Both the position numbers and the translations under genes were made by a program. A stretch of 64,000 bases of DNA from Actinomycetota bacterium (lineage in GTDB: Bacteria > Actinomycetota > Acidimicrobiia > Acidimicrobiales > SZUA-35), in the NCBI GenBank assembly GCA_039201605.1, contig JBCCRO010000030.1, positions 1,686 to 65,685 on the forward strand, written 5' to 3'. A model generated the notes under the pieces. The model did not search any database. It was not told the origin of the DNA and was given only the letters and a program-made list of their open reading frames with translations. The number at the start of each line of letters is the position of its first letter. Position 1 is the stretch's first letter. Shown piece after piece: positions 1 to 19,931 of this stretch.

Positions 1-315
1 GCCCTCCTCGGGGGGCGGGGGTGGCTGCTCACCGGAGCCCGGCAGGGGACCGGGCTCGGGCGACGGCTCCGTGCCGTCGCCCGGTGCGCCGCCGGGGATC
101 AGCGGTGGGAGGCCGCCCGGGGCGTCGAAGCCGGGCCCGCCGGTGCCGGGGAGGTTGAACTCGACCAGGTCGTGGGCGCCGCCGACGCTGTCGACGCCAA
201 GGCCGTCGCCACCAGCGCCGTCGAGACAGACGGCGACCACCAGATCGAGCGCCAGGCGGGCCTCGGAGACGCCGCCGAGCAGGAGCCCGATCGACTCGAT
301 CAACCATGTCGGCAC
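1..315 (-). CDS. partial CDS (first 105 codons, continues past window start): Gly/Pro-rich hypothetical protein, last visible gene of the Rhs operon
   Basis: Not in the ORF track because there is no stop inside the window. The high-GC3 frame is open from 315 down to 1. GTG 313-315 lies 2 nt after the TGA (318-320) of the upstream gene and 6 nt after GGGGAGG. Translation VPTWLIESIGLLLGG...PGSGEQPPPPPEEG. Track ORF 29-307(-) is the Arg-rich off-frame. Confidence 0.4.
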   Translation of the reverse strand, partial: MPTWLIESIGLLLGGVSEARLALDLVVAVCLDGAGGDGLGVDSVGGAHDLVEFNLPGTGGPGFDAPGGLPPLIPGGAPGDGTEPSPEPGPLPGSGEQPPPPPEEG

Positions 316-317
316 GC

Positions 318-2489
318 TCAGCCTCCCCGCTCGAAGGCGACGACGACGGCGACGCCGTTGGACGAGGTGCCGTAGTAGACGAGGTCGTCGATGACGGGCC
401 CGAAGCGGGTGGCCTGGCCGATGTCGGCGTCGGGACCGAAGGCGTCCTCGAGGGGCAACTCCCAGAGGAGCTCGCCCTCTGCGGTGTAGGCCACGGCGAA
501 GGGGCCGCCGAAGGTGCCGTCGTAGATCACGCCGTCGTCGGCCACCGCCATCGGATTGCCGGTGTTGCGGAAGGCGACGAGGTCGAGGGTCCAGTCGATC
601 TCGCCGTCGAGGTCGACGCCGGTCACGAGTTCGCCGTCGTAGAACACGAACCGCTCGTCGGCCACCACGCCGGCGTTGGGGGCACGGCTGAGGGGGCGCG
701 AGCCGTCGGGTGCGCCGGGGATGCGCCACCGCTCCACCAGTTCGCCGTCCTCGGCGGCCAGCGCCACGGCGTAGCTGGAGTTGCCGTCGTCGTCCGCCCG
801 GTCGCCGGTGGTGGCGAGGAACGTCACCCCGTCGATCGACAGCAGCGCCCCCGGCACGCTCACCAGCTCGCCCGGCACCGTGCGGGTGTCGAGTTCCCGG
901 CCGGTGGCCGGATCGAGCAGGGCGACTTCGACCGTCCGACGATCGCCGTCGTCGACCCGGGATGCGTGGAGCAGCGACCCGTCGGCGGCCACGCCGACCC
1001 CGAGCGACGACGGCCCGAGGTAGGGCCGGTGCCACAGCACACCGCCATCGGGGTCGATGGCCCACAGCACCGAGCGGTTGCCGTCGAGGATGATGCGGCC
1101 GTCGATCACCTGGCTCCGGTATCGACATGACGTCATCGACGGCTCGTCGGCGTCGAGGTCCGGGAAGATGGTGCGTTCCACAGCCCCGGTGGTGCCGTCG
1201 ACGATGACGATGCCGGCGGTGCCGTCGGCCTCCTCGGGCAGGAGCGGACCGCGCAGCTCGGCCTGCAACCCGATCCGCCCGTCGCCCAGTGCCATCGCCG
1301 GGCAGGCCTCGACGATCCCGTCCAACCGCCAGACCTCCTCACCGGTCGTCGCGTCGAGGGCCACGGCCACGCCGAGACCGGTCTCGTCATCGGTGGCATT
1401 GACGATCACGGGGCCGGCGCCGTCGGCGACGAAGCCCGGCTCCGCCTCCGACAGGCCGTCGAGCACGGTCAGCCAGGCCACGGCGCCGCCGGCGGCCACG
1501 TCGGGGACGAACGCCGTTCCCTCGGCGCGGGCCTGGGCCCGGGCGGCGCTGACGGCGAACGAGTCGTCGCCGGTGAGGCCGACGTCGAGCAGGCAGTCGG
1601 TGAGGTACGGCTCGAGCGTCACCCCCGCCTCGGCGCAGGCGGCCTCGGCCGCCGCCAGCTGCTCGGGCGTGAGGTCGGTGACCACGGCGGCCGAGCGGGG
1701 GAACGACTCGTCGGTGAACGTGGCGGTGCTCTCCCCCCGGCCGTAGGGGAACAGGCTGGTCTCGTCGGTGACCCGCCAGCTGTGACCGAACTCCCGGTGC
1801 ACGGTCTCCCAGTCGGGCACCCCGACGTACGGTCGGCCGTCGCGGCTCACGAGGTCGTCGCCGGGGTCGCCGTCGGCATCACCGAATAGCCCGAGGGTCG
1901 TACCGCGCCGCTCCTCGGCCAGGTGGACGTACACGTTGAGATAGGAGCTACTGACGCCCTCGGCCTCGACGTAGGACCCGTCCGGGGCGGTGACGACGAC
2001 GGCGTCGGCCCGTCGGTCGATCGACAGCGCGCCGGCGGTGGTGGTGCCGTCGACCTCGAGCCGGAGCCGATCGCCGTCGACGAAGAGCAGCGGCCCGCTG
2101 TCGCCCGCCACCAGCGCCACCCGGTCGGCGCCGACCTCGACGCCGAACGCCGTGGTGACCGACACCGACCCCGAGGAACCCCACGGCTCCATACGGAGCT
2201 GCACCTCCAGGTCGTCGGCGAGCACCGCCGTGTATTCGCCCGCCCCCTGCAGGTCGTAGCGAAGCTGGTCGAACGTGGTGAGGTGCGGGTCGCCGACCGA
2301 GCTGCCGCAGCCGACGCACGGCGGTGGTCCCTCCGGTGGCGGTGGCGGCGGCTCGGGTGGGCAGTCGGCGGCCAACTCACCGTCGAGCGAGAACTCCCCG
2401 CAGAACGGCGGCGGCGATCCCCCACAGGCGGCCAGCAGGAATGACGCAGCAGCGGCGGCCAGCAGCCCGAGCAGCAGCCGGAGGCTCAT
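318..2489 (-). CDS. exported lipoprotein with vWD (von Willebrand type D) domain plus PQQ-like beta-propeller repeats, 723 aa
   Basis: Track ORF 318-2720(-) trimmed to ATG 2487-2489. MSLRLLLGLLAAAAASFLLAACGG is a signal peptide plus lipobox. GDPHLTTFD (GDPH at 2283-2294) ... LFGDADGD is the vWD pattern. G/W-rich blade repeats follow to the C-terminus. The ATG overlaps the Rhs TGA (ATGA). Confidence 0.8.
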   Translation of the reverse strand: MSLRLLLGLLAAAAASFLLAACGGSPPPFCGEFSLDGELAADCPPEPPPPPPEGPPPCVGCGSSVGDPHLTTFDQLRYDLQGAGEYTAVLADDLEVQLRMEPWGSSGSVSVTTAFGVEVGADRVALVAGDSGPLLFVDGDRLRLEVDGTTTAGALSIDRRADAVVVTAPDGSYVEAEGVSSSYLNVYVHLAEERRGTTLGLFGDADGDPGDDLVSRDGRPYVGVPDWETVHREFGHSWRVTDETSLFPYGRGESTATFTDESFPRSAAVVTDLTPEQLAAAEAACAEAGVTLEPYLTDCLLDVGLTGDDSFAVSAARAQARAEGTAFVPDVAAGGAVAWLTVLDGLSEAEPGFVADGAGPVIVNATDDETGLGVAVALDATTGEEVWRLDGIVEACPAMALGDGRIGLQAELRGPLLPEEADGTAGIVIVDGTTGAVERTIFPDLDADEPSMTSCRYRSQVIDGRIILDGNRSVLWAIDPDGGVLWHRPYLGPSSLGVGVAADGSLLHASRVDDGDRRTVEVALLDPATGRELDTRTVPGELVSVPGALLSIDGVTFLATTGDRADDDGNSSYAVALAAEDGELVERWRIPGAPDGSRPLSRAPNAGVVADERFVFYDGELVTGVDLDGEIDWTLDLVAFRNTGNPMAVADDGVIYDGTFGGPFAVAYTAEGELLWELPLEDAFGPDADIGQATRFGPVIDDLVYYGTSSNGVAVVVAFERGG

Positions 2490-5400
2490 TCGAACATCCA
2501 CTCGATAGAGCGGTGGAGCCGGTCGAGCCCCCTGTAGATCTCCGCCGCACCGGCATCGGGCAACGACTCGGTTGGGACCGATTGATAACCGTCGCCGCCG
2601 CAGGCCCGCGCTGCTTCGAAGACCGGGTTCCAACAGATGTTGGCCCCGCCAAAATCGGCATCCACACCCCAGTAGCCGGTCGAGGTCCCGACGTTGCCGT
2701 CGATCCAGTCCTGGAGGCACTGGGTGTCGACGTCCTCCAGCTCCTCACACTTCAGGGTGTCGTTCAGGCGGGCCCTGTCGGTCTGGTCGACGAGCTTGGT
2801 CATGATCCCGCCGTCGTCCCGATAGTCCTCCGCCGTCCCGAAGCAGCGACCGTTGTTGCAGATCATGCCGTGCTCGAAGTGGCCGAAATCCCAGGCGCAG
2901 ATCGCCGGACCCTCGGGGATGTCGCTGGCGCCGCCGTCGTTGTAGTCGACGCTGAGGTCCTGGAGGCCGGTGGGGTCGATGCGGTTGGCGGGATCGCCGG
3001 AGGCGTAGGTGTGGAGGTTGTGCTGCCCGGACGTCATGAGCAGGGGATCGCGGGAGATCCAGCGGGCCAGGCCGGGGTGGTAGGTGCGGGCCCCGAGGAG
3101 AACGAGGTCGGTGACGCCGTCGACCAGGCCGCCGGTGAAGCCGAAGTGGTGGAAGCCGGGGTTGGTGTCGATCTCGGTGCGACCGTCCGGGTCGTAGCGA
3201 CAGTGCCGCACCACCTCGCCGGTGTCGGCGTCGATCGTCAGCCGAATCGACCCCAACCGATCGGCCACCAGGGCGTAGGTGCGACCGTGGCGGATCATGG
3301 CCACCGGCGTGCGCCCGGCGCCGGGCACGAACACGGTGTCGAGCGTGGCGTCGGGGCCGAGGGTGGCCGCCAGCCTCGCCCCCGCCCACAGGTAGCCCTG
3401 TCGGTACTCGCCGTCGACGTAGGTCGCAGTGCGCCGCCCGAACCCGTCGACCGTGTGCTGCACCAGCTGCCCCTCGGCGGTGCGGACGGCGACCAGGCGA
3501 CCGAGGTCGTCGTGGTGGAACGTGATGGTGCCACTCGGGCCGGTGAGCTGGGTCAGGCGGTCGGCCTCGTCGTAGCGGGCCCGGTCCTGGCCGACCGACA
3601 GGAGGCGATCGCCGCCGTCGACCCGAAGGTAGACGGCGGGTTGGTCGTCGGCGAGGTGGTGGGTCACGGTGCGGTTGCCGAGGTCGTCCCATTGCGCCGC
3701 CCACGACGGAGCCCCGTCGACCTCCACCGCCAGTAGCCGCCCGGTGGGGCCGTGGGTGCGGGTGGTGGTGCGGCGCTCCTCGCCCACGATCTCGTCCCCG
3801 GCTACGGCTCGGTTGACGTCGTCGAAGGTGTCGGCCAGGTGGGCGATCGGTCGGTCGTCGCCGGCGACGGACACCGTTCGGGCCACCACCCGACCGTGCT
3901 CGTCGTGGCGGAAGGCGATGACCACCCGCCCCACCTCGAGGCGCGTCACCAGCCCCGTCGTCGGGTGGCGAATGAACTGCGCCGGACCCTCGGCCGTGAC
4001 CAACCCGTCGGCGTCGACCGACCGGGCCAGGGTCACCGGGCCGATCGTGGTGGCGGTGTGGGCGAAGCCGTCGTAGTCGAACTCGATCCGACCGGGCGCG
4101 TGCCCCTCGCTGGTGTAGGCCGTCACCAGTGGCCCGTCCCGCTCGATGCGGGCCGCCGACCCGGCGCCGGTGGTGAGCTCGTCGACCCGCCCGGCGGCGT
4201 CGCGCCCGATGGCGATCTCGACCGACGATCCCGCCAAGCCGACGAGCTGCCCGCCGGCGTCGCGCCGAAGCGTGATCGGGCCGACGCCCTCGTCGTAGCC
4301 GAGGAGTCGGCCTGCGTCGTCGGTCGTCCACCTGAGCGCCGGTCGAAGTGCGCCGTCGCCGTCGGGACCCGGAAGCAACGCCTCGACGTCGCCGTCGGGT
4401 CGGCGACGGAGGGACCAGCGGGCGTTCCCGTCGACGGTGGTGTCGACCCGTCGCCGGTCCTCGCTGCGGGCGACTACCACCCGTCGACCGTCGGCCAGGA
4501 GGCTGGAGATCGAACCACCGGGCTGGTCCTGAATGACCGTCAGTTGCCGGTGGCCGTCGTCCACCGTGACCAGGCCGTCGTCGCCGTAGCGGTAGGTGAG
4601 GGTCGTGGCCCCCGTCGTCTGCGCCGTCAGCCGCCCGTGCTCGTCGTAGTGGTTGCGGACGGCGAGGCCCGAGGAGGCCGAAGCTGTCGCCGCCCGACCC
4701 CTGTCGTCGAGCGTGAGGACCGAGCGGCGCCCGGCGGCCGAGGTCGACTCGGTCCGTCCACCGTCGGCGCTCGTCCACCGCCGGCGGCGCTGACCGTCGA
4801 CCTCGTGGACCTCCTCCACCGAGCCGTCGGTATGCTCCTCGACCCACCGGCGACCGATCGTCGTCCGGCCCGACGGGGTTCGCCGCACCATCTCCACCCG
4901 CTGGGAACCGGTGCCGGCGGCGGTACCCCACACGGGGGAATGGCCGCCGGTCCGCACCACCCGCCGGGTCACGGTGGAGCCGTCGGCCTCGCTCACCACC
5001 TGGGAGCCGTCGGGGTGGGTGGCGACGGTGTAGGGCACCGGCGAGCCACAGCATCGGCGGGTTTCGAGCCGGCCCCCTCCCTCCAGGGGGGCCAGCTCCA
5101 CCGACGATTCCTCGCCGGTCGATCGCACGAGCGAGATGCGGCGGCGGGCGCCGTCGACCGTGCGGACCACGTCGGTCCGGCGGCCCGGCTCATCCAGACG
5201 GACCAGTCCTTCCTCGTCGTACGAGGCCTCGAACCGCTGCTCCGCCTCGTCGCCCTCGCCCGTCGAGCCGGTGCCAACACGCCGGACGATGGTCGTCGGT
5301 CGGGCCCGATCGTCGTAGGCGACGTGCCAGGCGCGGCCGTCGTCCGCCGTGAGCGAGGTGAGCAGGCCCCGGGCATCGAGGCCGATGACGGCTCGGCGGC

Positions 5401-5842
5401 CACCGCCGGACACGGTCAGCCGGTCGCCGTGGGCGGTCACGGTGAGGCGGCGTCGCCGGGCGTCGCCGACCGCCGCCAACCGACCGCCGTTCCACGCCAG
5501 CCACCACCGGACAAGCACACCCGGGTGGTCACGAATCTCCAACAGCCGGCCGGTCTCGTCGAACACCAGCCGCTGCCGACTCGACACCCGATCGACGATC
5601 AGCCGGTCGCCCTCAGCCCGTGGCCGGGCGACGGCCCGCCGTCGCCCGCCGAGCAGCACCGCGTTGGCGCCGACGTCCAACCGGTGGTCGATGGGCAGGC
5701 ACCAGCCGCCCAGGCCCACCGGCATCGACGCCGGCCCGGCGTCGGCCGAGCCGGCGAACACCAGCTCGGGGAACGGGCCCGGCACCGGGAGGCGGGCGAC
5801 GAGCGCACCCCGGGTGGGGTCGATGGCGAACGGAGCCCTCAC
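2486..5842 (-). CDS. RHS/YD-repeat protein with variable C-terminal (toxin-type) domain, 1118 aa
   Basis: YD repeats throughout (YDEADRLTQL, YRYGDDGLVT, YDEHGRLTAQ, YDEEGLVRL). Core-end motif ARTYHPGLARWISRDP...GDPANRIDPTGL, followed by a 158-aa Cys-rich tail. GTG start 5840-5842. No signal peptide visible. Confidence 0.9.
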   Translation of the reverse strand: MRAPFAIDPTRGALVARLPVPGPFPELVFAGSADAGPASMPVGLGGWCLPIDHRLDVGANAVLLGGRRRAVARPRAEGDRLIVDRVSSRQRLVFDETGRLLEIRDHPGVLVRWWLAWNGGRLAAVGDARRRRLTVTAHGDRLTVSGGGRRAVIGLDARGLLTSLTADDGRAWHVAYDDRARPTTIVRRVGTGSTGEGDEAEQRFEASYDEEGLVRLDEPGRRTDVVRTVDGARRRISLVRSTGEESSVELAPLEGGGRLETRRCCGSPVPYTVATHPDGSQVVSEADGSTVTRRVVRTGGHSPVWGTAAGTGSQRVEMVRRTPSGRTTIGRRWVEEHTDGSVEEVHEVDGQRRRRWTSADGGRTESTSAAGRRSVLTLDDRGRAATASASSGLAVRNHYDEHGRLTAQTTGATTLTYRYGDDGLVTVDDGHRQLTVIQDQPGGSISSLLADGRRVVVARSEDRRRVDTTVDGNARWSLRRRPDGDVEALLPGPDGDGALRPALRWTTDDAGRLLGYDEGVGPITLRRDAGGQLVGLAGSSVEIAIGRDAAGRVDELTTGAGSAARIERDGPLVTAYTSEGHAPGRIEFDYDGFAHTATTIGPVTLARSVDADGLVTAEGPAQFIRHPTTGLVTRLEVGRVVIAFRHDEHGRVVARTVSVAGDDRPIAHLADTFDDVNRAVAGDEIVGEERRTTTRTHGPTGRLLAVEVDGAPSWAAQWDDLGNRTVTHHLADDQPAVYLRVDGGDRLLSVGQDRARYDEADRLTQLTGPSGTITFHHDDLGRLVAVRTAEGQLVQHTVDGFGRRTATYVDGEYRQGYLWAGARLAATLGPDATLDTVFVPGAGRTPVAMIRHGRTYALVADRLGSIRLTIDADTGEVVRHCRYDPDGRTEIDTNPGFHHFGFTGGLVDGVTDLVLLGARTYHPGLARWISRDPLLMTSGQHNLHTYASGDPANRIDPTGLQDLSVDYNDGGASDIPEGPAICAWDFGHFEHGMICNNGRCFGTAEDYRDDGGIMTKLVDQTDRARLNDTLKCEELEDVDTQCLQDWIDGNVGTSTGYWGVDADFGGANICWNPVFEAARACGGDGYQSVPTESLPDAGAAEIYRGLDRLHRSIEWMFE

Positions 5843-5852
5843 CGCCGCCCGG

Positions 5853-6416
5853 TCACGGGTCGATCCGGGTCCCGCTGAGGGTGACGGACTCGCCGGCGGC
5901 GACCTCTGCCGAGCTGACGGTTTCGGTGAAGACGATCTCGGGCAGGACCCCCGGTTCGGACGGCTGCGTCAGGTAGCCCCGCACCAGCTCGACCTGCATC
6001 GGGCCGCCGCTGTCGACGCTGAAGGTGACGTCGCCCTCGACCACCCACGCCGTGTAGAGGAACTCCTCCGGCGTCGTCTCGTCGAGTTCGAAGCTGAAAC
6101 TCTGCTCGTAGGCCTGCGACTGACCGGCCAGGCTGGCCTCGGTCTCGAGCACATCCTCGACCCGGGCCGTTGTGCCCGTGGGCCCGGTGAGCCGCCACCC
6201 GAGGGCGAGGTCGTTTGACAGATCGCCACCCTCCTCCCCGGGGCCGTCCGACCCGTCCGTCGAGCCGTCGTTCGACTCGGCGGCGGACTCGGCCGCTTCG
6301 GCGCTCTCCTCGAGTTCGGCCTGCACGTCGTCGATCCGGTCGGCCACCCCGCACCCGGCGGCGAACAGCGCCATCGCCACCGCCACGATGGCCGCTCTCG
6401 GTGCTTGCGCTGTCAT
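5853..6416 (-). CDS. small acidic lipoprotein, 187 aa, first gene of the Rhs operon
   Basis: MTAQAPRAAIVAVAMALFAAGCG is a signal peptide plus lipobox. High GC3. The stop lies 10 nt upstream of the Rhs start. Confidence 0.7.
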   Translation of the reverse strand: MTAQAPRAAIVAVAMALFAAGCGVADRIDDVQAELEESAEAAESAAESNDGSTDGSDGPGEEGGDLSNDLALGWRLTGPTGTTARVEDVLETEASLAGQSQAYEQSFSFELDETTPEEFLYTAWVVEGDVTFSVDSGGPMQVELVRGYLTQPSEPGVLPEIVFTETVSSAEVAAGESVTLSGTRIDP

Positions 6417-6511
6417 GGCCCGTCTCCCGTCGCCGCTGGGCCGCCCACCGGCGACCGCCTCCCGAACCCTTGCGGCCGGTCGGTCGGACGGACAACACCC
6501 AGACGACCCGA

Positions 6512-6550
6512 TCGATCACCCAATCCGGCCTCCTCGATCACCCAGACCGG
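6512..6550. promoter_or_regulatory. 17-nt direct repeat x2 (TCGATCACCCAATCCGG / TCGATCACCCAGACCGG), 22-bp period, in the divergent Rhs-operon/LuxR spacer
   Basis: Read directly: 6512-6528 and 6534-6550, 15 of 17 identical, two helical turns apart, 40-78 bp upstream of the LuxR ATG. Confidence 0.3.
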
Positions 6551-6589
6551 CTCGGTCGCGCCCGACCGGAGTCTCTATGCTGAGCCCCG

Positions 6590-9202
6590 ATGGAGCCGGA
6601 GATGGTCGGACGGGCCGACGAGGTGGGTCGCCTGATCACGTTGGCCACGGCCGGGGCGTCGGTCCTGGTCACCGGCGACGCCGGTGTCGGCAAGTCGGCG
6701 CTGCTCCGACGGGTGGCCGACCGCCTCACGCCCGAGCACACGGTGTGGACGGTGTGGGGCACGGCGCCGGCCAAAGGCATCCCCTTCGCCGCCGTCGCCC
6801 ACCTGGTCGACGGCGTGGCCGCCATCGACCAGGCCGTGCTCATCAACCAACTCGCCGTCCGCATGGCCGCCGCCACCCCGGCCGTGGTGGTCGTCGACGA
6901 CATCGACCAGGTCGACGAGGCCACGCTCGCCGTGCTCGATCGCCTGGCCCGCACCGACGGCGTCGCCGTGATCGCCACCCGGCGGACCCAGGCCTCGGCG
7001 GCGGCCGAAACCACACCGCCGACCCTCAGCTGGGCCGACGCCGCCGCCCGCCTCGACCTGCCGCCGCTCGACCGGGAGGCGACGACCGAGCTCGGAGCCC
7101 ACCTCCTCGACGGGCCGCTCTCGGTCGGCCTCGCCGCCGCCCTCTGGGACAAGACGCAAGGCAACCCGTTGCTGGTGACCGAGGTCCTGCTCAGCTCCGA
7201 GGCGGCCGGCGTCCTCCGTCGGGGCCCGCATCAGTGGGACCTCGCCGCCGACCTCGTCGCCGGGGCCCGGGTGACCGATCTGGTGAAGCGCCGCCTCGAC
7301 GGCCTCGACGCCGACCACCGGCGCTGCATGAATCTCGTCGCCGTGGCCGAGCCGCTGCCGTTGGCCCGGCTGGCCGACGTGTTTCCCGCCACGGTGTTCG
7401 CCGAGCTGGAGCGGCGGTCCCTGCTTCGGGCCGACCAGGCCGGCGGCACCCCCACGCTCCGCCTGGCCCACCCGATCCTCGGCGATGTGCTGCGCGACGG
7501 ACTGGGGCCGCTCGGTCGCCGAGCCGTGTTGCTCGAGCTGGCCGAGTGCCACGACGCCGCCACGGTGGGCGACGGCGAATCGCTCCGCCTGGCCAGCTGG
7601 TTGCTCGATCTCGGCGAGACGGCCGACCCGGCCCTCCTGCGGCGAGGCGCGGCCGAAGCGCTCGATCGGTTCGAGCCGGTCCTGGCCGAGCGGCTGCTGC
7701 GAGCCCTCGACCCCACCGCCGACCCCGCCCTGTCGACCATGCTCGGCTCGGCGCTCCGGGCCCAGGGGCGGCTGGACGAGGCGTTGCCCCTCCTCACCGC
7801 GGCCGTCGAGCAGGCGGCGACGCCACCCGACGTGCTGCAGGCCGTCGGCGCGTTGGCCGACACCCACCTCTTCGACCTGGGCGACGTCGGCCAAGCGCTG
7901 ACCCTCCTCGGCGAGGGCGTCGATCGTCTCACCGCCGCCGGGGCCCCTCCCGAGGCGTCGGCCCAGCTGCGCACCCGGGCGTTCCTGGCCACCGGCATGG
8001 CGGGCGACTTCGCCACCGTGCTGGCCGAAGGCCAACAGCTTCTCCAGCTCCCGCTGCCGCCCCCGGTCGAAGGATCGGTGCTGATGGCCTACACCCTGGC
8101 CCAGGCCATGACCGGACGGCTCGACGATGTGCTCGACGGTCTCGACCGGGCCGAGCGTCTGGCCCTGGCCGACGGCGGGTCGAACCCCGTCCTTCTCCAC
8201 CAGCTGCAGCTCAACCGCACCCTCGTCCTCCATAGCCTCGCCGGGTTGGATGCTGCCGCGGCCCATACCGCAGGGATGCGGGCCGCGACCGCCGAGCCCC
8301 TCCGAGCCAGCGCCCTGTTCGTCGACAGCCTGGTCCTGCTCCTCGCCGGCGACCTCGACGGCGTGCTGCGACACACCGCCGAAGCGCTGGCCGACCTGGA
8401 GCAGGGCGATCCCCTCGGGCTGATGACGCTGGCCAGGACCTACCAGGCGGTGGCTCTGGCCATGTCCGGCCGACGGACCGAGGCGGTCCGGGCCGTCACC
8501 GGCCTGGCGACCGCCGCCCATCTCGATGAACCGCGGATGGACGTGTGGCGCCAGCAGGCCGAGGCCTGGATCGAGGCCGGCGGAGAAAAGGGCGACTCGG
8601 CTACCCGCCGGCTGGTCGAGGCCGGGAGCCGCGCCGTCGACGGCCAGCATGCGGTCTGGGGAGCGCAGTGCCTGCACGCCGCCGTCCGCCTCGGACACCC
8701 GGGGCCGGTGGTGGAGCCCCTGGCCGCCCTCGCCCGGTCGGCGGGGCCGCTCGTCGAGCTCTTCGCCCGGCACGCCGACGCCGCGGCGGCCGCCGATCCC
8801 GTGCTGCTCGACAAGGTGGCCGACGACCTGCTGGCCACCGGGGCGGTCGGCGTCGCCGTCGACGCCTGGGCGGCGTGCGCCGACGCGGAGGACGACGAGG
8901 CAGCGGCGGCGCGGGCCGCGCTGCTCGCCCACCTGGCCATGGACCGCTGCTCCGGTTACCGGTCGCCGTTGCTCGACCGGGTGGCGCACCCGCTCACCCC
9001 CCGACAGCACGAGGTGGCGGTCCGAGCGGCCGCCGGCACCTCCGCCCGGGCCATCGCCCAGGAGCTGACGGTCACGGCCAAGACGGTCGACAATCATCTG
9101 CAGGGCGTGTACCTGGCCCTCGGCCTGCAGAGCCGCAGCGAGTTGACGGCGTTGTGGCACCGGGTGGCACCGACCCGCACCGCACCTGGTGTCGAGACGT
9201 AG
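6590..9202 (+). CDS. large ATP-binding LuxR-family (LAL/MalT-like) transcriptional regulator, 870 aa
   Basis: Walker A GDAGVGKSALL near the N-terminus, a long helical/TPR-like middle, and a C-terminal LuxR HTH LTPRQHEVAVRAAAGTSARAIAQELTVTAKTVDNHLQGVYLALG. The start could instead be ATG 6602. Confidence 0.85.
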   Translation: MEPEMVGRADEVGRLITLATAGASVLVTGDAGVGKSALLRRVADRLTPEHTVWTVWGTAPAKGIPFAAVAHLVDGVAAIDQAVLINQLAVRMAAATPAVVVVDDIDQVDEATLAVLDRLARTDGVAVIATRRTQASAAAETTPPTLSWADAAARLDLPPLDREATTELGAHLLDGPLSVGLAAALWDKTQGNPLLVTEVLLSSEAAGVLRRGPHQWDLAADLVAGARVTDLVKRRLDGLDADHRRCMNLVAVAEPLPLARLADVFPATVFAELERRSLLRADQAGGTPTLRLAHPILGDVLRDGLGPLGRRAVLLELAECHDAATVGDGESLRLASWLLDLGETADPALLRRGAAEALDRFEPVLAERLLRALDPTADPALSTMLGSALRAQGRLDEALPLLTAAVEQAATPPDVLQAVGALADTHLFDLGDVGQALTLLGEGVDRLTAAGAPPEASAQLRTRAFLATGMAGDFATVLAEGQQLLQLPLPPPVEGSVLMAYTLAQAMTGRLDDVLDGLDRAERLALADGGSNPVLLHQLQLNRTLVLHSLAGLDAAAAHTAGMRAATAEPLRASALFVDSLVLLLAGDLDGVLRHTAEALADLEQGDPLGLMTLARTYQAVALAMSGRRTEAVRAVTGLATAAHLDEPRMDVWRQQAEAWIEAGGEKGDSATRRLVEAGSRAVDGQHAVWGAQCLHAAVRLGHPGPVVEPLAALARSAGPLVELFARHADAAAAADPVLLDKVADDLLATGAVGVAVDAWAACADAEDDEAAAARAALLAHLAMDRCSGYRSPLLDRVAHPLTPRQHEVAVRAAAGTSARAIAQELTVTAKTVDNHLQGVYLALGLQSRSELTALWHRVAPTRTAPGVET

Positions 9203-9238
9203 GCTGGCCTGAATCCCGAGAACGGAAAGCGCAACGAC

Positions 9239-10054
9239 ATGGCAACCCTGGTCTGCTTCCACGCCCATCCCGACGACGAGGCCATCAGCACCGGCGGCCT
9301 CATGGCCAAGGCGGCCGCCGCCGGTCACCGGGTGGTGCTCGTGTGCGCCACCCGTGGCGAGCAGGGCGAGCCGCAGGAGGGCGTGCTCGACGAGGGCGAG
9401 GAGCTGTGGGAGCGCCGCGTCGTCGAGTTGGCCGAGGCGGCCAAGCTGCTCGGCGCCGACGAGCCCCGCTGGCTCGGCTACGAGGACTCCGGGATGATGG
9501 GCGAGCCGACCAATGAGAACCCGGCCTGTTTCTGGCAGGCCGACCACGACGAGGCCGTCGCCCGCTTCCAGGCCATCCTCGAAGAGGTGGAGGCCGACGT
9601 CGTCACCATCTACGACGAGCACGGCGGGTACGGCCACCCCGATCACATCCGGGTCCACACCGTCGGCCTCGCCGCCGCCCGGGCTGCCGGCATCGAGGGC
9701 GTCTACGAGGCGACGATGAACCGCACCGCCATCCAGGAGATGCGCGACGCCGCCCCCGAGACCTTCGAGAACGGCGATGGTGACGAGGATGGCGACGATG
9801 CGGACTTCGACGTCGACAGCTTCGGTACCGCCGCCGCCGACATCGCCTACCGGGTCGACGTGGGCGAGGTGATCGAGGCCAAGCGGGCGGCCATGGTGGC
9901 CCACCGCAGCCAGATCGGCCCCGACAGCCTGTTCCTGGCGATGCCCGATGAGGTCTTCGTCGTGGCCTTCGGCTCCGAGTGGTTCAACATCCCGGGCCGG
10001 ATCTCCAACGGCAACGGTCCCGTCGACGTCGAGATGCTCCCCGGCCTGGGCTGA
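9239..10054 (+). CDS. PIG-L family deacetylase (MshB/Mca/LmbE-like)
   Basis: N-terminal VCFHAHPDDEAISTGG hallmark and a later HPDH motif. 271 aa. Confidence 0.85.
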   Translation: MATLVCFHAHPDDEAISTGGLMAKAAAAGHRVVLVCATRGEQGEPQEGVLDEGEELWERRVVELAEAAKLLGADEPRWLGYEDSGMMGEPTNENPACFWQADHDEAVARFQAILEEVEADVVTIYDEHGGYGHPDHIRVHTVGLAAARAAGIEGVYEATMNRTAIQEMRDAAPETFENGDGDEDGDDADFDVDSFGTAAADIAYRVDVGEVIEAKRAAMVAHRSQIGPDSLFLAMPDEVFVVAFGSEWFNIPGRISNGNGPVDVEMLPGLG

Positions 10055-10150
10055 CCCCCTCCTCCGGCTCGGTCGTCGGCGCCGCCATCGCCCGCCAATC
10101 GAGGGCGTCCAGTTATCGCCCCCGGCCGGAAATGCGCTAGCCATGGAGAC

Positions 10151-11392
10151 ATGACTGCGACGACCGAGGCCGTCACGGCCCCCATCGAGTCCGAGGACGA
10201 CTTCCGCGCCCGGTGCCAGGCGTTCCTGGCCGAGCACGCCACCGGGCTGGTGTACGACAGGCCCGATCCTCGCAGCGCCAACGAGCTGGCCGCCAACAAG
10301 GCCTTCCAGGCCAAGGTGGTCGAGGCCGGTCTGGCCGGCATCACCTACCCGGCCGAGTACGGAGGTCTGGGACTGCCCCGGGGCCATGAGCGGATCTGGC
10401 GGGAGGAGTACGCCAAGCACAGCGACATGACCGGTCAGCTGACCATCAGTCACGGGATGTGCGTCCCGATGCTGGCCGAGTACGGCACCGACGAGCAGAA
10501 GCAGCGCTACCTGCCCGACGCCATCGCCGCCCGCACCGTGTGGTGCCAGATGTTCTCCGAGCCCGGCGCCGGCTCCGACGTCGCCAGCCTGCAGACCAGG
10601 GCGGTGCTCGACGGCGAGGAGTGGACCCTCAACGGCCAGAAGGTGTGGACCACGCTGGCCCACGTGTCCGACTACGGCATCGTGATCGCCCGGACCGATC
10701 CCGACGTCCCCAAGCACGCCGGTATCTCGATGTTCGTCGTCGACATGAACGCCCCCGGGGTCGAGACCCGACCGATCAACCAGGTCGACGGCGGCGTCCA
10801 CTTCAACGAGGTGTTCTTCACCGACGTCCGCCTGCCCGCCGACGCCCTCATCGGCGAGCTCAACGCCGGCTGGCGCCTGGCCACCGCCATGCTGATGTAC
10901 GAGCGGGTCGCCATCGGCACCGGTTCCAGCTCCGGCATCAAGACCCCGACCTCCGACATGCTGGTCAAGGTGGCCCGCAGCCACGGCGTGCTCGACGACG
11001 CCGTCGTCCGCCAGGAGCTGATGAAGGTCCACATCGAGGAGACGACCAAGAGCCTGGTCTCACTTCGCACCCGGGCCGAGATGAAGGCGGGCAAGACCCC
11101 CGGGCCCGGCGGTTCGCTCGGCAAGCTGCACGGGGCCAAGATCGCTCGCATGACCCGCCGGTTGCTGCTCAACCTCACCGGTCCATCCGGCCTGGCGTGG
11201 AGCGACGGCGAGCCCGACGGCGACAAGCACAGCCAGCTCACGCTGCGGAGCTTCGCCGCCAACATCGCCGGTGGTACCGACGAGATCCAGAAGAACATCA
11301 TCGGCGATCGGGTGCTCGGCCTCCCTCGGGACGTCAGCGTCGACCGCGACGTCCCGTTCCGGGATCTGAAGGTCGGCACCCAGTCGGACTAG
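10151..11392 (+). CDS. acyl-CoA dehydrogenase family protein
   Basis: CQMFSEPGAGSDVASLQT, WTLNGQKVWTT, and C-terminal GGTDEIQKNIIGDRVLGLP. GGAGAC sits upstream of the ATG. Confidence 0.9.
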   Translation: MTATTEAVTAPIESEDDFRARCQAFLAEHATGLVYDRPDPRSANELAANKAFQAKVVEAGLAGITYPAEYGGLGLPRGHERIWREEYAKHSDMTGQLTISHGMCVPMLAEYGTDEQKQRYLPDAIAARTVWCQMFSEPGAGSDVASLQTRAVLDGEEWTLNGQKVWTTLAHVSDYGIVIARTDPDVPKHAGISMFVVDMNAPGVETRPINQVDGGVHFNEVFFTDVRLPADALIGELNAGWRLATAMLMYERVAIGTGSSSGIKTPTSDMLVKVARSHGVLDDAVVRQELMKVHIEETTKSLVSLRTRAEMKAGKTPGPGGSLGKLHGAKIARMTRRLLLNLTGPSGLAWSDGEPDGDKHSQLTLRSFAANIAGGTDEIQKNIIGDRVLGLPRDVSVDRDVPFRDLKVGTQSD

Positions 11393-11501
11393 GCGGCGGG
11401 GCCGTCGGCGGGCGCCGCTCTTTATGTGAGACTTCTTTGCCTCGGCTTTCGGTCGGTTTACCTACGTTGAGGGTCAGCCCCCCACCAGGAGACCGATCCC
11501 C

Positions 11502-12785
11502 ATGTTTGCTCCTCCGGCCATCCCTTCAGGCTCAGAGGAACCCGATTCCCCCGAGAACGCCCCCACCGGCCCGATGCCGCAGCCGGTTCCTACTTCGTCG
11601 TTCGCCCCCGCCGAGGTCGGCGAGCCCGAACCGATCGCACCTCCCGTGCGACCGACACCGGCACCCCATGGCGCCGTTTCACCTACGGTGAGCCCTCCCA
11701 CAAACCCCCCGGCCAACGAGGCCGTCCGTCGTCCCCGATCCCGGGTGGCGGTGGCCTCGTTGGCATTCCTCCTGGGTGGCGCCGTGGGTGCCGGTGGTTT
11801 CGCCCTCGGCGCACAGTCGACCGAGACGACCGAGACGGTCCCCGCCACCACGTCGACGGTGACCGCCAACCAGGCCGCGGCGGTCGACACAACCGCCACG
11901 ACGGGCCAGACCACCGCCCCGCTCGATCTCAACGTCACCGAGCCGGCCGCCGCCGTCGCCGCATCGCTCGGCCCGGCCGTCGTCCAGGTGGAGACCAACT
12001 TCGGCCAGGGCTCCGGCGTTGTCTACGAGGAGGGGCTGATCCTCACCAACCACCACGTGATCGAGGGAGCGGAGACGGTCCGGGTGCGGACCTCCGACGG
12101 GCGGGTGTTCGACACCGAGGTGCTCGGCTCCGATCCCCGCAACGACATCGCCGTGCTCGCCGCCCCGGGGGCCGACATTCCCGTCGCCGCCATCGGCTCC
12201 GCCGACGTCCTCCAGCCGGGGCAGATCACGGTGGCGATCGGCAGCCCGTTCCGTCTGCAGCAGACGGTGACCGCCGGGATCGTGTCGTCGGTCAACCGGC
12301 CGGTGCCCAACCAGGACGGCACCGTCACCGCCATGATCCAGACCGACGCCCCCATCAACCCCGGTAACTCCGGTGGCGCCCTGGCCAACGTCGACGGCGA
12401 GGTCGTCGGTATCAACACCTCGATCCGGACCGACGGCACCACCAACGCCAACATCGGCATCGGCTTCGCCGTGCCCATCGAGACCGCCATCGAGGTGGCG
12501 GAACGGATTCAGAGCGGCGAGTCGCTCGAGCCCGGCGTCCTCGGTGTCTCCGGTGCTCTCAATGACGACGACCTCGGCGTTCCCCTCGACGAGATCGTGC
12601 CCGACTCGGCCGCCGATAGCGCAGGCCTGGAGGTGGGTGATCGGGTGCTGTCGATCGATGGTGTCCCGGTCACGTCGATCGAGGAACTCGCCGGTCTGAT
12701 CCAGACGCACTTCACCGGCGAGGTGATCGAACTGGAGGTGCTGCGGGGCACCGACCGGTTGACGGTCCAGGCGACCCTGTCCTGA
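11502..12785 (+). CDS. HtrA/PepD-like S1C trypsin-type serine protease with PDZ domain, membrane anchored
   Basis: Pro-rich N-terminus, TM segment VAVASLAFLLGGAVGAGGFAL, motifs ILTNHHV, NDIAVL and TDAPINPGNSGGAL (catalytic Ser), and a C-terminal PDZ (GLEVGDRVLSIDG). AGGAGA RBS. Confidence 0.85.
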   Translation: MFAPPAIPSGSEEPDSPENAPTGPMPQPVPTSSFAPAEVGEPEPIAPPVRPTPAPHGAVSPTVSPPTNPPANEAVRRPRSRVAVASLAFLLGGAVGAGGFALGAQSTETTETVPATTSTVTANQAAAVDTTATTGQTTAPLDLNVTEPAAAVAASLGPAVVQVETNFGQGSGVVYEEGLILTNHHVIEGAETVRVRTSDGRVFDTEVLGSDPRNDIAVLAAPGADIPVAAIGSADVLQPGQITVAIGSPFRLQQTVTAGIVSSVNRPVPNQDGTVTAMIQTDAPINPGNSGGALANVDGEVVGINTSIRTDGTTNANIGIGFAVPIETAIEVAERIQSGESLEPGVLGVSGALNDDDLGVPLDEIVPDSAADSAGLEVGDRVLSIDGVPVTSIEELAGLIQTHFTGEVIELEVLRGTDRLTVQATLS

Positions 12786-12799
12786 GACCGCTTGAGGTC

Positions 12800-12829
12800 G
12801 GCCTCCCCCCAGTCGCCCGGGGGGAGGCC
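12800..12829. terminator. GC-rich hairpin between convergent genes (GGCCTCCCCCC-N8-GGGGGGAGGCC)
   Basis: Perfect 11-bp stem at 12800-12810 / 12819-12829, between the htrA-like stop (12785) and the hydrolase stop (12835). Confidence 0.5.
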
Positions 12830-12834
12830 ACCGC

Positions 12835-13641
12835 TCACTCCGTGTGTGGTCGGCCGGCCGCCTGGTTCGTCCAGGCGGCCAGCTGGTTTTCGACCGCCGA
12901 CCAGACGGCGTGGGTGGGGTCGATGATGTGGAAGTGGTCGACGTCGGTCGGGCTGACGAGGGTGACGTCGTCGCCGGCGGCGGTGGCGGCGGCCACATAG
13001 TCCTCGACGAGATCGAGGGGCACGCTGTCGTCGGCGTGGCCGTGGACGACCAGCTGGGCCACGTCGAGGGGGAGCAGGGCGGCGGGTGACGCTGCGGCGT
13101 AGAGCTCGGGCGCAGTCGCACTGTCGGCACCGAGCAGCTCCCGCACCGCACCGTCGCTGAGGTTGCGTCGGTCGGCCTCGACCAGATCGGCCACCGGTGC
13201 CAGGGCGACCACGCCGTCGATCCGCCGCTCCCGGGTGGCGCCCCACAGGGCAAGGTGCCCACCGGCCGAGTGGCCGATGGCCACCAGCGGTCGGTGGCCC
13301 CGAGCCTCGCCTCGGCTGGCGGTCGGGCCGTCCGACCCCCGGTCGGCCAGATCGGCGGCGAGGGCGAGGGCGGCGTGGACGTCGGCCGACATCCGGCCCC
13401 AGACCCCGTGGGTATCCTCGATCCGGCGGTATTCGATGTTCACCGTCAGCCAGCCGTCGGCGGCGAGCGATGCCGCCAGCGGGTGCATCAGGTCGAGGGC
13501 GTAGCGATGGCGCCAGTAGCCACCGTGGACGAGGACCGCCGTACCGGGTGTCGGATCGGTGGCCGGTGGCGACCACACCTCGACGAACTGGTCGGGGTGC
13601 TCGCCGTAGGTGATGATCTCGGGCTCGGTGGCCATCACCAC
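12835..13641 (-). CDS. alpha/beta hydrolase (esterase/arylformamidase-like)
   Basis: VLVHGGYWRHRY oxyanion-type motif and GHSAGGHLA nucleophile elbow. 268 aa. Confidence 0.8.
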   Translation of the reverse strand: MVMATEPEIITYGEHPDQFVEVWSPPATDPTPGTAVLVHGGYWRHRYALDLMHPLAASLAADGWLTVNIEYRRIEDTHGVWGRMSADVHAALALAADLADRGSDGPTASRGEARGHRPLVAIGHSAGGHLALWGATRERRIDGVVALAPVADLVEADRRNLSDGAVRELLGADSATAPELYAAASPAALLPLDVAQLVVHGHADDSVPLDLVEDYVAAATAAGDDVTLVSPTDVDHFHIIDPTHAVWSAVENQLAAWTNQAAGRPHTE

Positions 13642-13714
13642 TGTTTAGCCGCAGCGGCTCCACCTCGGGGTGGCCATCGGCTTTGATGGGTGGATCACGG
13701 AGAGGGGAGTGCCT

Positions 13715-14356
13715 GTGGATTCATCGAAGAAGGCCTGGGACGATGTCGGTGACACCGTCGGGGGGTTGGGGAAGTCGCTCTCGAAGCGGCTGCGCAAGAA
13801 CGATGCCGACGCCGATGCGCCGGTGAGCGACGATCAACTCAAGGGCGAGGCCAAGCAGGCGGGCAAGTCGCTGCTCGGCGCTCTGTCGGCCACGGTCGAC
13901 GACGTGGGCAACGCCCTCTCCTCGGCCATCGACGGCTCCAGCCCCGGGGCGCAGGCCCCACCTCCTCCACCGGGAGCCGCAGCGCCGCCACCCGCCCCCG
14001 GTTCTCCGCCGCCTGGCCCGGGTCCGGTGGCCCCGCCGGCTGGTCCCCCCGGATCGGGTTCGGTGGCGCCTCCGGCCGGTCCTCCAGGGTTGGGATCGAT
14101 GCCGCCGCCCTCGGCCGAGCGGATTGCGACCGATCCGGTTGTACCGCCGGCTGGTCCCCCCGGATCGGGTTCGGTGGCGCCTCCCGCCGGGCCTCCCGGC
14201 TCGGGAGCGGTGCCGCCGCCGGTCGGCCCGCCGGGGTCGGGCACGAGCGCCGCTGCTCCACCGCCCGGTCCAACCGACTCGCTCGATCCGACGACGCTGC
14301 CGCCGCCGGTGGTGGACTCCGACGACGGTGACCCGGACGCCCAGCCGCTGGACTAG
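13715..14356 (+). CDS. proline-rich repeat protein, hypothetical
   Basis: Track ORF 13670-14356 trimmed to GTG 13715, which lies 5 nt after GGAGAGGGGAG. Helical Lys/Asp-rich N-terminus, then VAPPAGPPGSGS-type repeats. Confidence 0.6.
   Translation: MDSSKKAWDDVGDTVGGLGKSLSKRLRKNDADADAPVSDDQLKGEAKQAGKSLLGALSATVDDVGNALSSAIDGSSPGAQAPPPPPGAAAPPPAPGSPPPGPGPVAPPAGPPGSGSVAPPAGPPGLGSMPPPSAERIATDPVVPPAGPPGSGSVAPPAGPPGSGAVPPPVGPPGSGTSAAAPPPGPTDSLDPTTLPPPVVDSDDGDPDAQPLD
14043..14194 (+). repeat. identical 41-nt direct repeat (CCGCCGGCTGGTCCCCCCGGATCGGGTTCGGTGGCGCCTCC) 111 nt apart, inside the Pro-rich CDS
   Basis: Copies at 14043-14083 and 14154-14194. The spacing is 37 codons, so this is an in-frame duplication. 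Confidence 0.8.
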
Positions 14357-14512
14357 TCGACCTTGAGCGAACTCGTCACAAGCGATAGGTTGAAACGTGA
14401 TCCGTAACGGTTTACGTCGGATCGACCAGTTCGAGGTGAGAGCCCTGAACCACCCGTTCAGACCCTCGGCGGCACGATCCAGCTGAACCATCGCCGAGCC
14501 GAGGAACCTGGA

Positions 14513-14692
14513 TTGTCCTCAGAGCAAGATCCGCCTATCGATCCCGAGATCGATGTCGTCGTTGCCGCCCGTCGTCAGCTCGATGACGTGCTCGCCATCG
14601 AGGACGACGAGACGGCCCCGACGTCGCTGATCGACCTGGCCCGAGCCGCCGTCGACCAGTGGGACGGGGATGCCGCCGACTCGACCCGCTAG
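14513..14692 (+). CDS. possible unannotated small acidic ORF (59 aa, TTG start)
   Basis: Not in the track. High-GC3 frame: LSSEQDPPIDPEIDVVVAARRQLDDVLAIEDDETAPTSLIDLARAAVDQWDGDAADSTR*. GAGGAA sits 6 nt upstream of the TTG. In-frame stop at 14405-14407. Convergent with the sigma gene. Confidence 0.3.
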   Translation: MSSEQDPPIDPEIDVVVAARRQLDDVLAIEDDETAPTSLIDLARAAVDQWDGDAADSTR

Positions 14693-14705
14693 TCGTTTCG
14701 GTCCG

Positions 14706-15293: not shown

Positions 15294-15622
15294 GGTGCTC
15301 CTCCCGTTGTCGATCGGGAGGGCGGCACCGGGGCCGCCGCCTAGTGCGATAGAGGTTTCGTTGTCGTACTCCCCGAGCCCTGCAGAACATAACTCTCCTC
15401 GGTGTCTGGACCTAGAGCGCGCTTCGGCTTCGAAAGCGACCCTGCCTCGGGCCGTAGCGCAGTCATTTCCCAATGGCGGCCGCTGATCGCGACCACACGC
15501 CGATGAGGAGCTGCCGTCCACTCGCAACCAAGGCGGGGTCTCCCTCGGCCCCTGGCACGGCGAGGCTCGGAAGCCGTCGGCCGTGTTGGTTGTAGAGCGG
15601 TCCTCTTCACGATGATCCTTTC

Positions 15623-15653: not shown

Positions 15654-15676
15654 AGAAGAAGAATCTGAACAGTGAT

Positions 15677-17194: not shown

Positions 17195-17202
17195 TAGCTG
17201 GA

Positions 17203-17234: not shown

Positions 17235-17237
17235 TTC

Positions 17238-18533: not shown

Positions 18534-19931
<1,398 letters not shown>

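Follow-up and report, generated by a model that had tools for sequence, protein, structure and literature searches.

The window considered in the current analysis is a stretch of 64,000 nucleotides (nt) from a metagenome-assembled genome (MAG) labelled Actinomycetota bacterium. Its beginning (positions 1-6416, minus strand) encodes a compact cassette built around a protein of the Rhs/YD cocoon type. The order of the genes is ORF1, a lipoprotein; the Rhs protein; a lipoprotein with a VWD domain and a β-propeller; ORF4, a small Gly/Pro-rich protein; and an intramembrane protease of the PrsW family, which lies just beyond the edge of the window. The features are as follows.

5853..6416, minus strand: ORF1 lipoprotein, 187 amino acids (aa)
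2486..5842, minus strand: Rhs/YD cocoon protein, 1118 aa, GTG start
2963..3196, minus strand: Rhs-associated core domain (Rhs aa 883-960, TIGR03696)
2486..2962, minus strand: C-terminal cargo domain (Rhs aa 961-1118 plus stop)
318..2489, minus strand: VWD/propeller lipoprotein, 723 aa, with VWD and PQQ_2
1..315, minus strand: ORF4, Gly/Pro-rich, the first 105 of 117 codons within the window
Outside the window (marked at 1..1, minus strand): PrsW-family intramembrane metalloprotease, 350 aa, at 16443-17495 of contig L005

An earlier note on this DNA had described four minus-strand open reading frames (ORFs) packed head to tail, and all of them are present at the coordinates that it gave. The three junctions that it reported are also borne out by the sequence: ORF1 and the Rhs gene are separated by a gap of 10 nt with a change to the +1 frame, the Rhs and VWD genes overlap by ATGA, and the VWD gene is joined to ORF4 by TGA-GC-GTG. 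Its description of a four-gene operon has to be revised, as the window truncates the unit. Contig L005, one of the ORF1-bearing contigs, all of which belong to the same organism, is 99.83% identical to positions 1-13000 of the window without a gap and reaches 1.6 kb beyond the window edge. ORF4 is seen there at full length (16102-16455, 117 aa, ending in DDECAE) and is overlapped by 13 nt by the PrsW gene, which is followed by a gap of 354 nt. Since the window edge cuts the operon and L005 shows the PrsW gene, the unit is one of five genes. Four independent assemblies agree on the cassette of the window strain.

The Rhs protein of the window is represented by a cluster of 100% identity (P0001). 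An orthologue with 60% identity (P0002, locus L001) lies in a cassette of the same five genes, and the chromosomal surroundings are also the same. The genes of the cassette are all intact in both loci and are 46-68% identical; this, together with the GC content at third codon positions (GC3) of 0.88-0.89 in the cassette frames of a host genome with a GC of 73%, shows that the ORFs are real coding genes. The flanking housekeeping genes share 84-92% identity with L001, and this range is seen for the genes of the PIG-L, acyl-CoA dehydrogenase and HtrA-like proteins. The sequence comparison indicates that the cassette has diverged more rapidly than the genes around it, which would be expected of surface or conflict genes. 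In L001 ORF1 and the Rhs gene overlap by GTGA in the -1 frame. As this geometry differs from that of the window, the split between the two genes is not a shared frameshift artefact; a sequencing error or frameshift dividing one fused ORF1-Rhs gene is ruled out, the ORFs being separate in both loci.

Related cassettes have been identified in other genomic contexts. Locus L011 (P0035), of unrelated context, encodes an Rhs protein, a VWD/PQQ protein of 716 aa, an ORF4 homologue of 79 aa and PrsW. Locus L012 (P0038) encodes an Rhs protein, an apparently frameshifted VWD/PQQ protein, an ORF4 homologue of 96 aa and PrsW. The VWD/propeller gene of L012 (13464-15971) runs over two frames and a spurious ORF of 239 aa has been called there; the split is probably due to indel errors of a long-read assembly and not to a real disruption. 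In L001, L005 and L011 the VWD gene is the one immediately 3' of Rhs, and it also comes after Rhs in L012, and the PrsW gene follows ORF4 in all the cassettes. The conserved core consists of Rhs, VWD/propeller, ORF4 and PrsW and occurs in three unrelated genomic contexts.

A distant Rhs protein that likewise has no signal peptide, P0015 (locus L004), has a different C-terminus, an adjacent PrsW gene and small Gly-rich ORFs nearby; a Gly/Asp-rich ORF upstream of it ends in DDDCT. The PrsW protein linked to P0015 is of the same subfamily (profile score 362). Linkage to PrsW is seen in each of the four independent lineages for which the flanking sequence sufficed for a judgement; contig L010 is too short for this. 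The comparisons show that the cassette is a conserved functional unit and that the VWD module belongs with the Rhs protein. A literature search found no paper on this cassette, and the combination is one not previously described.

The Rhs protein contains regions assigned to RHS_repeat (PF05593, E 1.2e-11), TIGR01643, TEN_YD-shell and Rhs_assc_core in Pfam and NCBIfam, with the Rhs-associated core at aa 883-960 (TIGR03696, E 4.6e-15). Its best match by sequence in the PDB is a bacterial teneurin-like protein, BiTLP (9pt5/9ifo, E 2.8e-35), and the alignment of aa 67-964 with BiTLP residues 1252-2148 covers the YD shell only. The AlphaFold2 (AF2) model of the protein (pLDDT 76, pTM 0.68) is all-β across aa 1-900. 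Comparison of the model with Foldseek gives an E-value of 1.5e-53 and a TMq of 0.65 to 9ifo; the TMq ranges from 0.61 to 0.67 for teneurins and from 0.38 to 0.51 for the Rhs proteins of type VI secretion systems (T6SS), and is <=0.44 for the BC cocoons of Tc toxins. The shell is closest to the YD shells of teneurin type.

The autoproteolysis motif reads RDPLL...IDPTGL, with DPTGL at 2963-2977, and its two Asp residues are 24 residues apart, the spacing known from D2116/D2140 of BiTLP (PMC13018210). D932, P933, D956 and G959 are invariant in the family alignment (A3). The motif is intact and cleavage at this site is predicted. On the basis of its repeats, core domain, motif and fold, the protein is a true member of the Rhs/YD cocoon proteins. 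A double-Cys motif, RRCCGSP, is also present within the shell (Rhs aa 262-268, window about 5039-5059, minus strand) and is kept in the family consensus, with C264 and G266 invariant in the same alignment.

The N-terminus of the Rhs protein has no signal peptide and no hydrophobic stretch of 15 aa or of 19 aa. Profile searches with the two ends, which had been proposed in the earlier note, matched no family with either the first 159 aa (Pfam, NCBIfam) or the last 160 aa, and no helical domain of WXG or LXG type was detected at the N-terminus by Pfam or NCBIfam. The domain calls of that note, RHS/YD for this protein and vWD with β-propeller for its neighbour, agree with Pfam and NCBIfam, and its statement that no export or trafficking module is recognisable on the Rhs protein holds for 8/8 members of the family. 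In the AF2 model residues 1-30 form β-strands of the shell or of a plug (pLDDT 77-86). The 42 in-frame codons 5' of the GTG start include no ATG, GTG or TTG and overlap the conserved C-terminus of ORF1. The protein cannot start further upstream because these codons hold no start, and an alternative upstream start that would provide a signal peptide is ruled out.

The product of the VWD/propeller gene begins with MSLRLLLGLLAAAAASFLLAAC and has the lipobox LLAAC with Cys22, followed by a Cys/Pro-rich tether. The VWD domain has been assigned to aa 65-218 (PF00094, E 1.5e-10) and matches the VWD of FCGBP with an E-value of 1.5e-19. It is followed by a region with weak similarity to RGM_C in Pfam and then by a β-propeller of PQQ type at about aa 340-723 (PQQ_2, E 2.5e-13). 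A GDPH motif is situated at aa 66-69 (window 2283-2294) and is kept in L001, L011 and L012. The protein has the VWD fold and the GDPH motif of the autocleaving VWD domains, and cleavage is predicted. The product of the VWD gene carries its own lipoprotein signal peptide in every member. A second protein of ~717 aa matching PQQ_2 is encoded in the window at 36486-38639 (minus strand); it has no meaningful similarity to the VWD/propeller protein and is ruled out as a paralogue of it.

Another group of homologues combines these parts in one chain. The fused proteins P0003, P0007, P0011, P0012, P0014 and P0016 are single polypeptides of 1598-1868 aa comprising a lipoprotein signal peptide, a short N-terminal segment, an Rhs shell, a DPxG motif, a Cys-rich linker, a VWD domain, an RGM_C-like region and β-sandwich repeats. 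Their DPxG motif is DPTGL in two proteins and DPTGT, DPTGR, DLAGL or DQTGL in the others, and the motif of their VWD domain is GDPH, GEPH or GDTH. The shell shares 28-30% identity with that of the window across about 82% of the query. The N-terminal segment is also homologous, and the N-terminus of the window Rhs protein aligns to that part of the fused proteins which begins where their signal peptide and linker end. The VWD/propeller profile of the split family matches the fused proteins with E-values of 1e-43 to 1e-48.

These findings bear on the suggestion in the earlier note that the flanking lipoproteins act as partners of the Rhs protein. The suggestion gains support for the downstream VWD/propeller protein, whose pairing with Rhs is syntenic in L011 and L012 in the neighbourhood comparison that the note had asked for, and which is fused to the shell in the sister clade. 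It finds no support for the upstream lipoprotein ORF1, which is absent upstream of Rhs in both these loci.

The fused proteins also raise the possibility that the cassette is a decaying remnant of a broken lipoprotein-Rhs-VWD gene, or an assembly error. The order of the parts mirrors that of the fused relatives, and the Rhs protein starts where their mature part starts. We consider this explanation extremely unlikely, as the ORFs are intact in at least five independent assemblies and lineages down to 33-40% identity, the frames are kept with the GC3 given above, the VWD proteins have signal peptides of their own, and the ORF1/Rhs junctions of the window and L001 differ.

The two groups differ consistently in their export signals. 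A hydrophobic N-terminus is found in 0/8 of the short Rhs proteins, and a lipoprotein signal peptide in 6/6 of the fused proteins. The PrsW gene is present in 4/4 independent signal-less lineages; in five examined fused loci (3 lineages) there is no PrsW, no ORF4 and no conserved cargo domain. The loss of the signal peptide goes with the gain of PrsW/ORF4 and of a discrete cargo. Two of the fused loci (L002, L024) have a gene for a DUF3558 lipoprotein tightly coupled upstream. Downstream of the fused P0003, at 5914-6888 of L024, a relaxase-like protein of TrwC/MobF type is recognised by eye from its His motif, which hints at a mobile-element context.

The signal-bearing relatives are also relevant to the view that the Rhs protein acts in the cytoplasm, for instance as a defence effector or a caged enzyme, with its exported neighbours being co-regulated only. 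No member has a signal peptide, as this view would have it, and a LuxR/AAA_16 (STAND-like) regulator is adjacent to the cassette in the window and in L001. L011 and L012 lack the regulator, and no profile of a defence system is matched; an anti-phage defence system is ruled out, there being no PADLOC hits. The five invariant Cys of the cargo (described below) also speak against a cytoplasmic site. Moreover, shell and VWD module are joined in one chain in the relatives with a signal peptide, and the parts therefore meet outside the cell. A cytoplasmic role is very unlikely in our assessment.

The PrsW proteins encoded in L001 and L004 match PF13367. The catalytic motifs EExxK, FAxxED, H and HxxxN are invariant in five Rhs-linked PrsW proteins, the residues being E134, E135, K138, F172, E176, D177, H211, H248 and N252. 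Judged by these motifs the enzyme is predicted to be catalytically intact. A metagenome scan with the PrsW alignment yielded only distant PrsW proteins, which have no Rhs, VWD or ORF4 neighbours; because these relatives occur without the neighbours of the cassette, the Rhs-linked PrsW proteins form a distinct subgroup.

ORF4 is a protein with 30-40% Gly+Pro, an acidic tail, hardly any Lys/Arg and a weakly hydrophobic N-terminal helix, and it has no family in Pfam. The orthologues from L005, L001 (15495-15791), L011 (15435-15674) and L012 (15684-15974) share the motifs FNLPG[TS] and P[PI][LF]IPG as well as a Cys in position -3 counted from the C-terminus. At the C-terminus of the homologues an acidic run precedes this Cys and the two final residues (CAE, CPS, CEE, CEQ). 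The LPGTG of ORF4 is ruled out as a sortase signal, since it is replaced by LPGTD/LPGSP in L011/L012 and no membrane anchor comes after it.

ORF1 begins with MTAQAPRAAIVAVAMALFAAGC, has the lipobox LFAAGC and a hydrophobic stretch at aa 5-28, and is made up of a signal peptide, an acidic linker and a β-rich domain of ~120 aa. No Pfam or NCBIfam family has been assigned to it, and among 5.8 billion proteins its only homologues are itself and the L001 orthologue. The corresponding position in L002 and L024 is held by DUF3558 lipoproteins, to which ORF1 shows no detectable relation. ORF1 is an orphan restricted to its lineage and does not belong to the conserved core; being such an orphan, absent from L011/L012 and unrelated to DUF3558, it is ruled out as a conserved partner or immunity protein.

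The gene immediately after Rhs is that of the VWD/propeller protein, and ORF4 and PrsW are the conserved candidates further downstream. The claim that the toxin has no small immunity gene is correct for the position directly after the toxin end; within the whole unit there is a small conserved ORF, ORF4, two genes downstream. ORF4 and the PrsW gene beyond the window edge, neither of which the earlier note could take into account in full, are the components that bear most closely on the questions of export and immunity.

Abi proteins are known for providing immunity to bacteriocins. The CPBP/Abi intramembrane proteases are distant relatives of PrsW (PMC3482391). PrsW, possibly with ORF4, may in principle serve for self-protection against an envelope-acting cargo, which a polytopic protease of the membrane could degrade or keep out; in this case the Rhs protein would leave the cell by lysis, in vesicles or through an unlinked system. 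The presence of PrsW in the loci with a discrete cargo (types A and B) and its absence from the cargo-less fused relatives are consistent with such a role; there is no other conserved immunity candidate directly after Rhs, and the pattern of invariant Cys in the cargo points to action outside the cytoplasm. However, protection would leave the missing export signal unexplained in 8/8 members. Immunity genes usually change with the type of toxin, yet a PrsW of this one subfamily is also encoded beside P0015, whose C-terminus is unrelated. We know of no case in which PrsW has been shown to act as an immunity protein. This role, the chief rival of the reading that we prefer (below), appears unlikely on the whole; if PrsW proves to be an immunity factor, it would represent a new immunity mechanism for Rhs toxins.

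The cargo domain of ~160 aa forms the last part of the Rhs protein. When the last 160 aa were run against all 1.84 billion representatives with HMMER, five further proteins of 1095-1168 aa were identified with the domain at the C-terminus and none with a signal peptide; the homologues, at 32-54% identity, occur only at the C-termini of Rhs proteins of ~1100 aa with the same architecture. A scan of genome contigs gave the window's own MAG as the sole match, and a JGI metagenome scan with the cargo alignment gave no match. A word-indexed search with this alignment returned zero matches and missed the window's own protein too, which looks like a limitation of the tool. The residues C24, H33, Q62, T63, C74, E75, D79, D81, C84, C112, W113, C123 and Y145 (numbered within the C-terminal domain) are invariant, and they include five Cys, His33 and an acidic cluster.

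The variable toxin that the earlier note had expected at this end is not what we find, as the cargo is conserved across the family. Its identity within the family is 28-54%, against 33-62% for the shell; the different C-terminus of the distant P0015 indicates some variation at greater evolutionary depth.

The model of the cargo (pLDDT 79, pTM 0.77) has an α+β fold of four strands followed by helices, in which strand 2 carries His33 and the N-terminal end of the helix 109-122 carries Cys112. Foldseek gives nothing significant for it against the PDB, the best non-trivial matches being picornavirus 2A H-box/NC proteins. Against a viral library, picornavirus polyproteins and a PPPDE protein come on top (probability up to 0.99, E 0.01-0.1 with a best value of 0.0096, TMq 0.41-0.44). 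The picornavirus genera of these top matches encode 2A H-box/NC proteins, to which the matched part of the polyproteins may correspond. No family is matched by the cargo in Pfam (E up to 10) or in a profile search of the PDB, and no match to PLAAT3 is given by hhalign; a known toxin family is ruled out for the cargo by these comparisons. The model suggests a permuted papain-like Cys-His hydrolase of the NlpC/P60, LRAT-type or H-box/NC kind, and we offer this as a lead and not as a finding. This conserved and unannotated family may be a new branch of the permuted papain-like hydrolases.

The conservation of the cargo to about the same extent as the shell would also be in keeping with a teneurin-like surface device for adhesion or recognition, the C-terminal domain of which would be structural or signalling and would need no immunity. 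The missing canonical immunity gene fits such a device, as does the similarity of the shell to teneurins and bacterial teneurin-like proteins, and the fused relatives bear VWD and binding-type repeats and no discrete toxin-like domain. The intact autoproteolysis motif with both Asp invariant, a mark of cargo release, is difficult to reconcile with this function, and so are the invariant His/Cys in a putative papain-like geometry and the invariant acidic cluster. In addition, the bacterial teneurin-like proteins that have been tested carry toxic C-termini (PMC13018210). A role purely in adhesion seems quite unlikely to us.

The tail of the cargo is variable except for a YxxxD/E near the C-terminus, in which Tyr145 is invariant and an Asp/Glu stands four residues on in 7/7 members. 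Actinomycetota commonly have ESX systems. This motif could be read as a signal for export of the Rhs protein or of its cargo by a type VII (ESX) system whose genes lie at another place in the genome. A motif of two residues is weak on its own, and it lies, in the model, within a long helix of a domain that is expected to be enclosed in the cocoon. Without a WXG, LXG or other helical N-terminal domain, the Rhs protein is not a type VII substrate by the domain criterion. ESX components were found neither among ten large ORFs scanned elsewhere in the window nor in the cassette loci; a type VII secretion system (T7SS) gene cluster in the window is ruled out to the extent of these ten ORFs. We regard this route as highly unlikely.

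The reading that we prefer, with a probability of roughly 0.4, is that Gram-positive Actinomycetota have in this locus a split Rhs system that operates at the cell surface, with PrsW working in trans together with ORF4. Rhs cocoons otherwise travel by Sec, T6SS or Tc-type routes. According to this proposal the cocoon would be made in the cytoplasm, and PrsW, probably with ORF4, would be needed for its passage through the membrane or for its processing. The route would correspond to the 'PrsW-dependent' class predicted in 2012 (PMC3482391), here with PrsW in trans. That class of export or processing was predicted by Zhang et al. 2012 (PMC3482391) from N-terminal PrsW fusions, including one from Streptomyces in which RHS repeats stand between PrsW and the toxin; in a later paper of the same group (PMC9424270) peptidases such as PrsW had until then been seen as components of the toxin proteins. 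No experimental follow-up of the PrsW-dependent route was found in the literature search.

Outside the cell the cocoon would dock on the lipid-anchored VWD/propeller protein. This protein may be the subunit that provides anchorage and target binding, functions that would fall to the fused VWD and binding repeats in the long relatives. By analogy with FCGBP, self-cleavage at GDPH may leave the VWD/propeller part on its lipid tether non-covalently or through disulfides, which could provide a release step. The cargo would most likely be an envelope-directed Cys-His hydrolase acting from outside, with its Cys residues plausibly forming two disulfides and a free Cys112. For a cargo acting from outside no small cytoplasmic immunity gene would be expected.

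A number of points weigh against this proposal. We know of no experiment that shows export by a PrsW protease and of no obvious source of energy for it, and a cocoon of ~120 kDa is large. The contact between the Rhs protein and the VWD lipoprotein rests on fusion and synteny. The papain-like assignment of the cargo is marginal by Foldseek and finds no support in sequence profiles. A non-polymorphic cargo is atypical of interbacterial toxins. The family is rare, with the cargo matched in one species-level genome and in no JGI metagenome contig. The sample is small, four lineages against three, with p of about 0.03 by an exact test done by hand. Finally, the dichotomy is confounded: the fused relatives have no discrete cargo either, so that PrsW could track immunity to the cargo, and export and immunity are inseparable here because the fused relatives lack cargo and PrsW alike.

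The locus could be, and we put this forward as tentative and rather doubtful, the first recognisable operon in which PrsW in trans and a small acidic partner export or process a signal-less Rhs protein of teneurin type, for assembly on a GDPH-cleaving VWD/propeller lipoprotein and with a cargo of a new Cys-His hydrolase family. It would then be a 'split bacterial teneurin' with its anchoring and targeting half on a gene of its own. The Rhs protein, the putative exporter or processor and the surface partner are encoded by separate genes, and the sister clade with signal peptide, fused VWD and no PrsW is a natural control; the hypothesis is therefore directly testable.

The surroundings of the cassette include a divergent gene (6590-9202, plus strand) for an 870-aa LuxR-family regulator with AAA_16 and GerE domains, which shares an intergenic region of 173 nt with the cassette. 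With 64% identity to its counterpart in L001, the regulator evolves at the pace of the cassette. Regulators of a similar kind are found next to the fused Rhs-VWD gene of L002, and none in L011 or L012. From about 13700 to 20300 the GC content drops to 0.62-0.68 (profiled only to 16 kb) and the DNA may be foreign or atypical; a GC3-based filter called no gene at 13644-20351, though ORFs of 150-465 aa lie there. Four genes at 52682-61747 (minus strand) encode an Hsp70-like protein, a PPC-domain protein, a Ser/Thr kinase and a 1337-aa adenylate cyclase with AAA_16 and TPR, a possible signalling cluster unrelated to the cassette. No rRNA, tRNA or Rfam match was found anywhere in the window.

The system can be compared with several known classes. 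The polymorphic toxin systems (Zhang et al. 2012) are not matched, as the Rhs protein has no N-terminal trafficking module and its cargo is not variable; with these features and with no small immunity gene adjacent to it, the protein is not a member of the canonical polymorphic toxins. The PrsW-dependent toxins (PMC3482391) likewise combine PrsW with a toxin-like protein without a Sec signal in a Gram-positive host. PrsW is an N-terminal domain of the toxin there, whereas here it is a separate gene of 350 aa situated two genes downstream, preceded by ORF4 and accompanied by a VWD/propeller lipoprotein. The locus is not a member of the fused PrsW toxin class.

The BC cocoons of the Tc toxins (TcdB2-TccC3, YenB/YenC) share with the Rhs protein the cocoon, the aspartyl autoproteolysis and the enclosed cargo. 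Tc subunits also have no signal peptides, and their functional unit is split over several genes and has a β-propeller gatekeeper. Unlike the Tc toxins, the locus lacks an SpvB domain, a TcA-like translocator and a phage-type lysis cassette; the propeller is part of an exported VWD lipoprotein, and the structural similarity is low (the TMq given above). The Rhs protein is not a member of the Tc toxins.

The similarity to the teneurin-like proteins (TLPs) such as BiTLP (PMC13018210) extends to the YD shell, the 24-residue spacing of the two Asp and a small cargo (about 15 kDa). For some of the TLPs, too, no signal peptide is predicted (Raoelijaona et al. 2026, PMC13018210). The Rhs protein differs from them in starting about 40 aa before the shell and in having no FN-plug, NHL propeller, TIP or adhesion domains in cis; PF25021, PF01436 and PF24684 gave no match in the window Rhs protein and are present in the true TLP hits P0004-P0013. 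With FN-plug and NHL propeller absent it is not a member of the teneurin-like proteins. The β-propeller is found here on a separate lipoprotein and is of PQQ type, and the usual 'immunity' position is taken by this gene for a protein of 723 aa. The conserved cargo and the PrsW gene in the operon are further differences.

The fused lipoprotein-Rhs-VWD proteins share the shell, the VWD/RGM_C module and a GDPH-type motif with the cassette. They differ from it in being single chains with a signal peptide, in having a Cys-rich linker in place of the cargo and PPC-like repeats in place of the propeller, and in the absence of ORF4 and PrsW nearby. The GDPH-autocleaving VWD proteins (RGM/hemojuvelin, FCGBP, MUC2/MUC4) share the GDPH near the start of the VWD domain and the RGM_C-like region. 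FCGBP is secreted with all its GDPH sites cleaved and its fragments held by disulfides (PMC8267560). In contrast to these proteins, the VWD protein of the current analysis comes from a bacterium, has a lipid anchor and is paired with an Rhs cocoon or fused to one. The locus ties bacterial VWD/GDPH domains to shells of Rhs/teneurin type and bears on the assembly of teneurin-like architectures.

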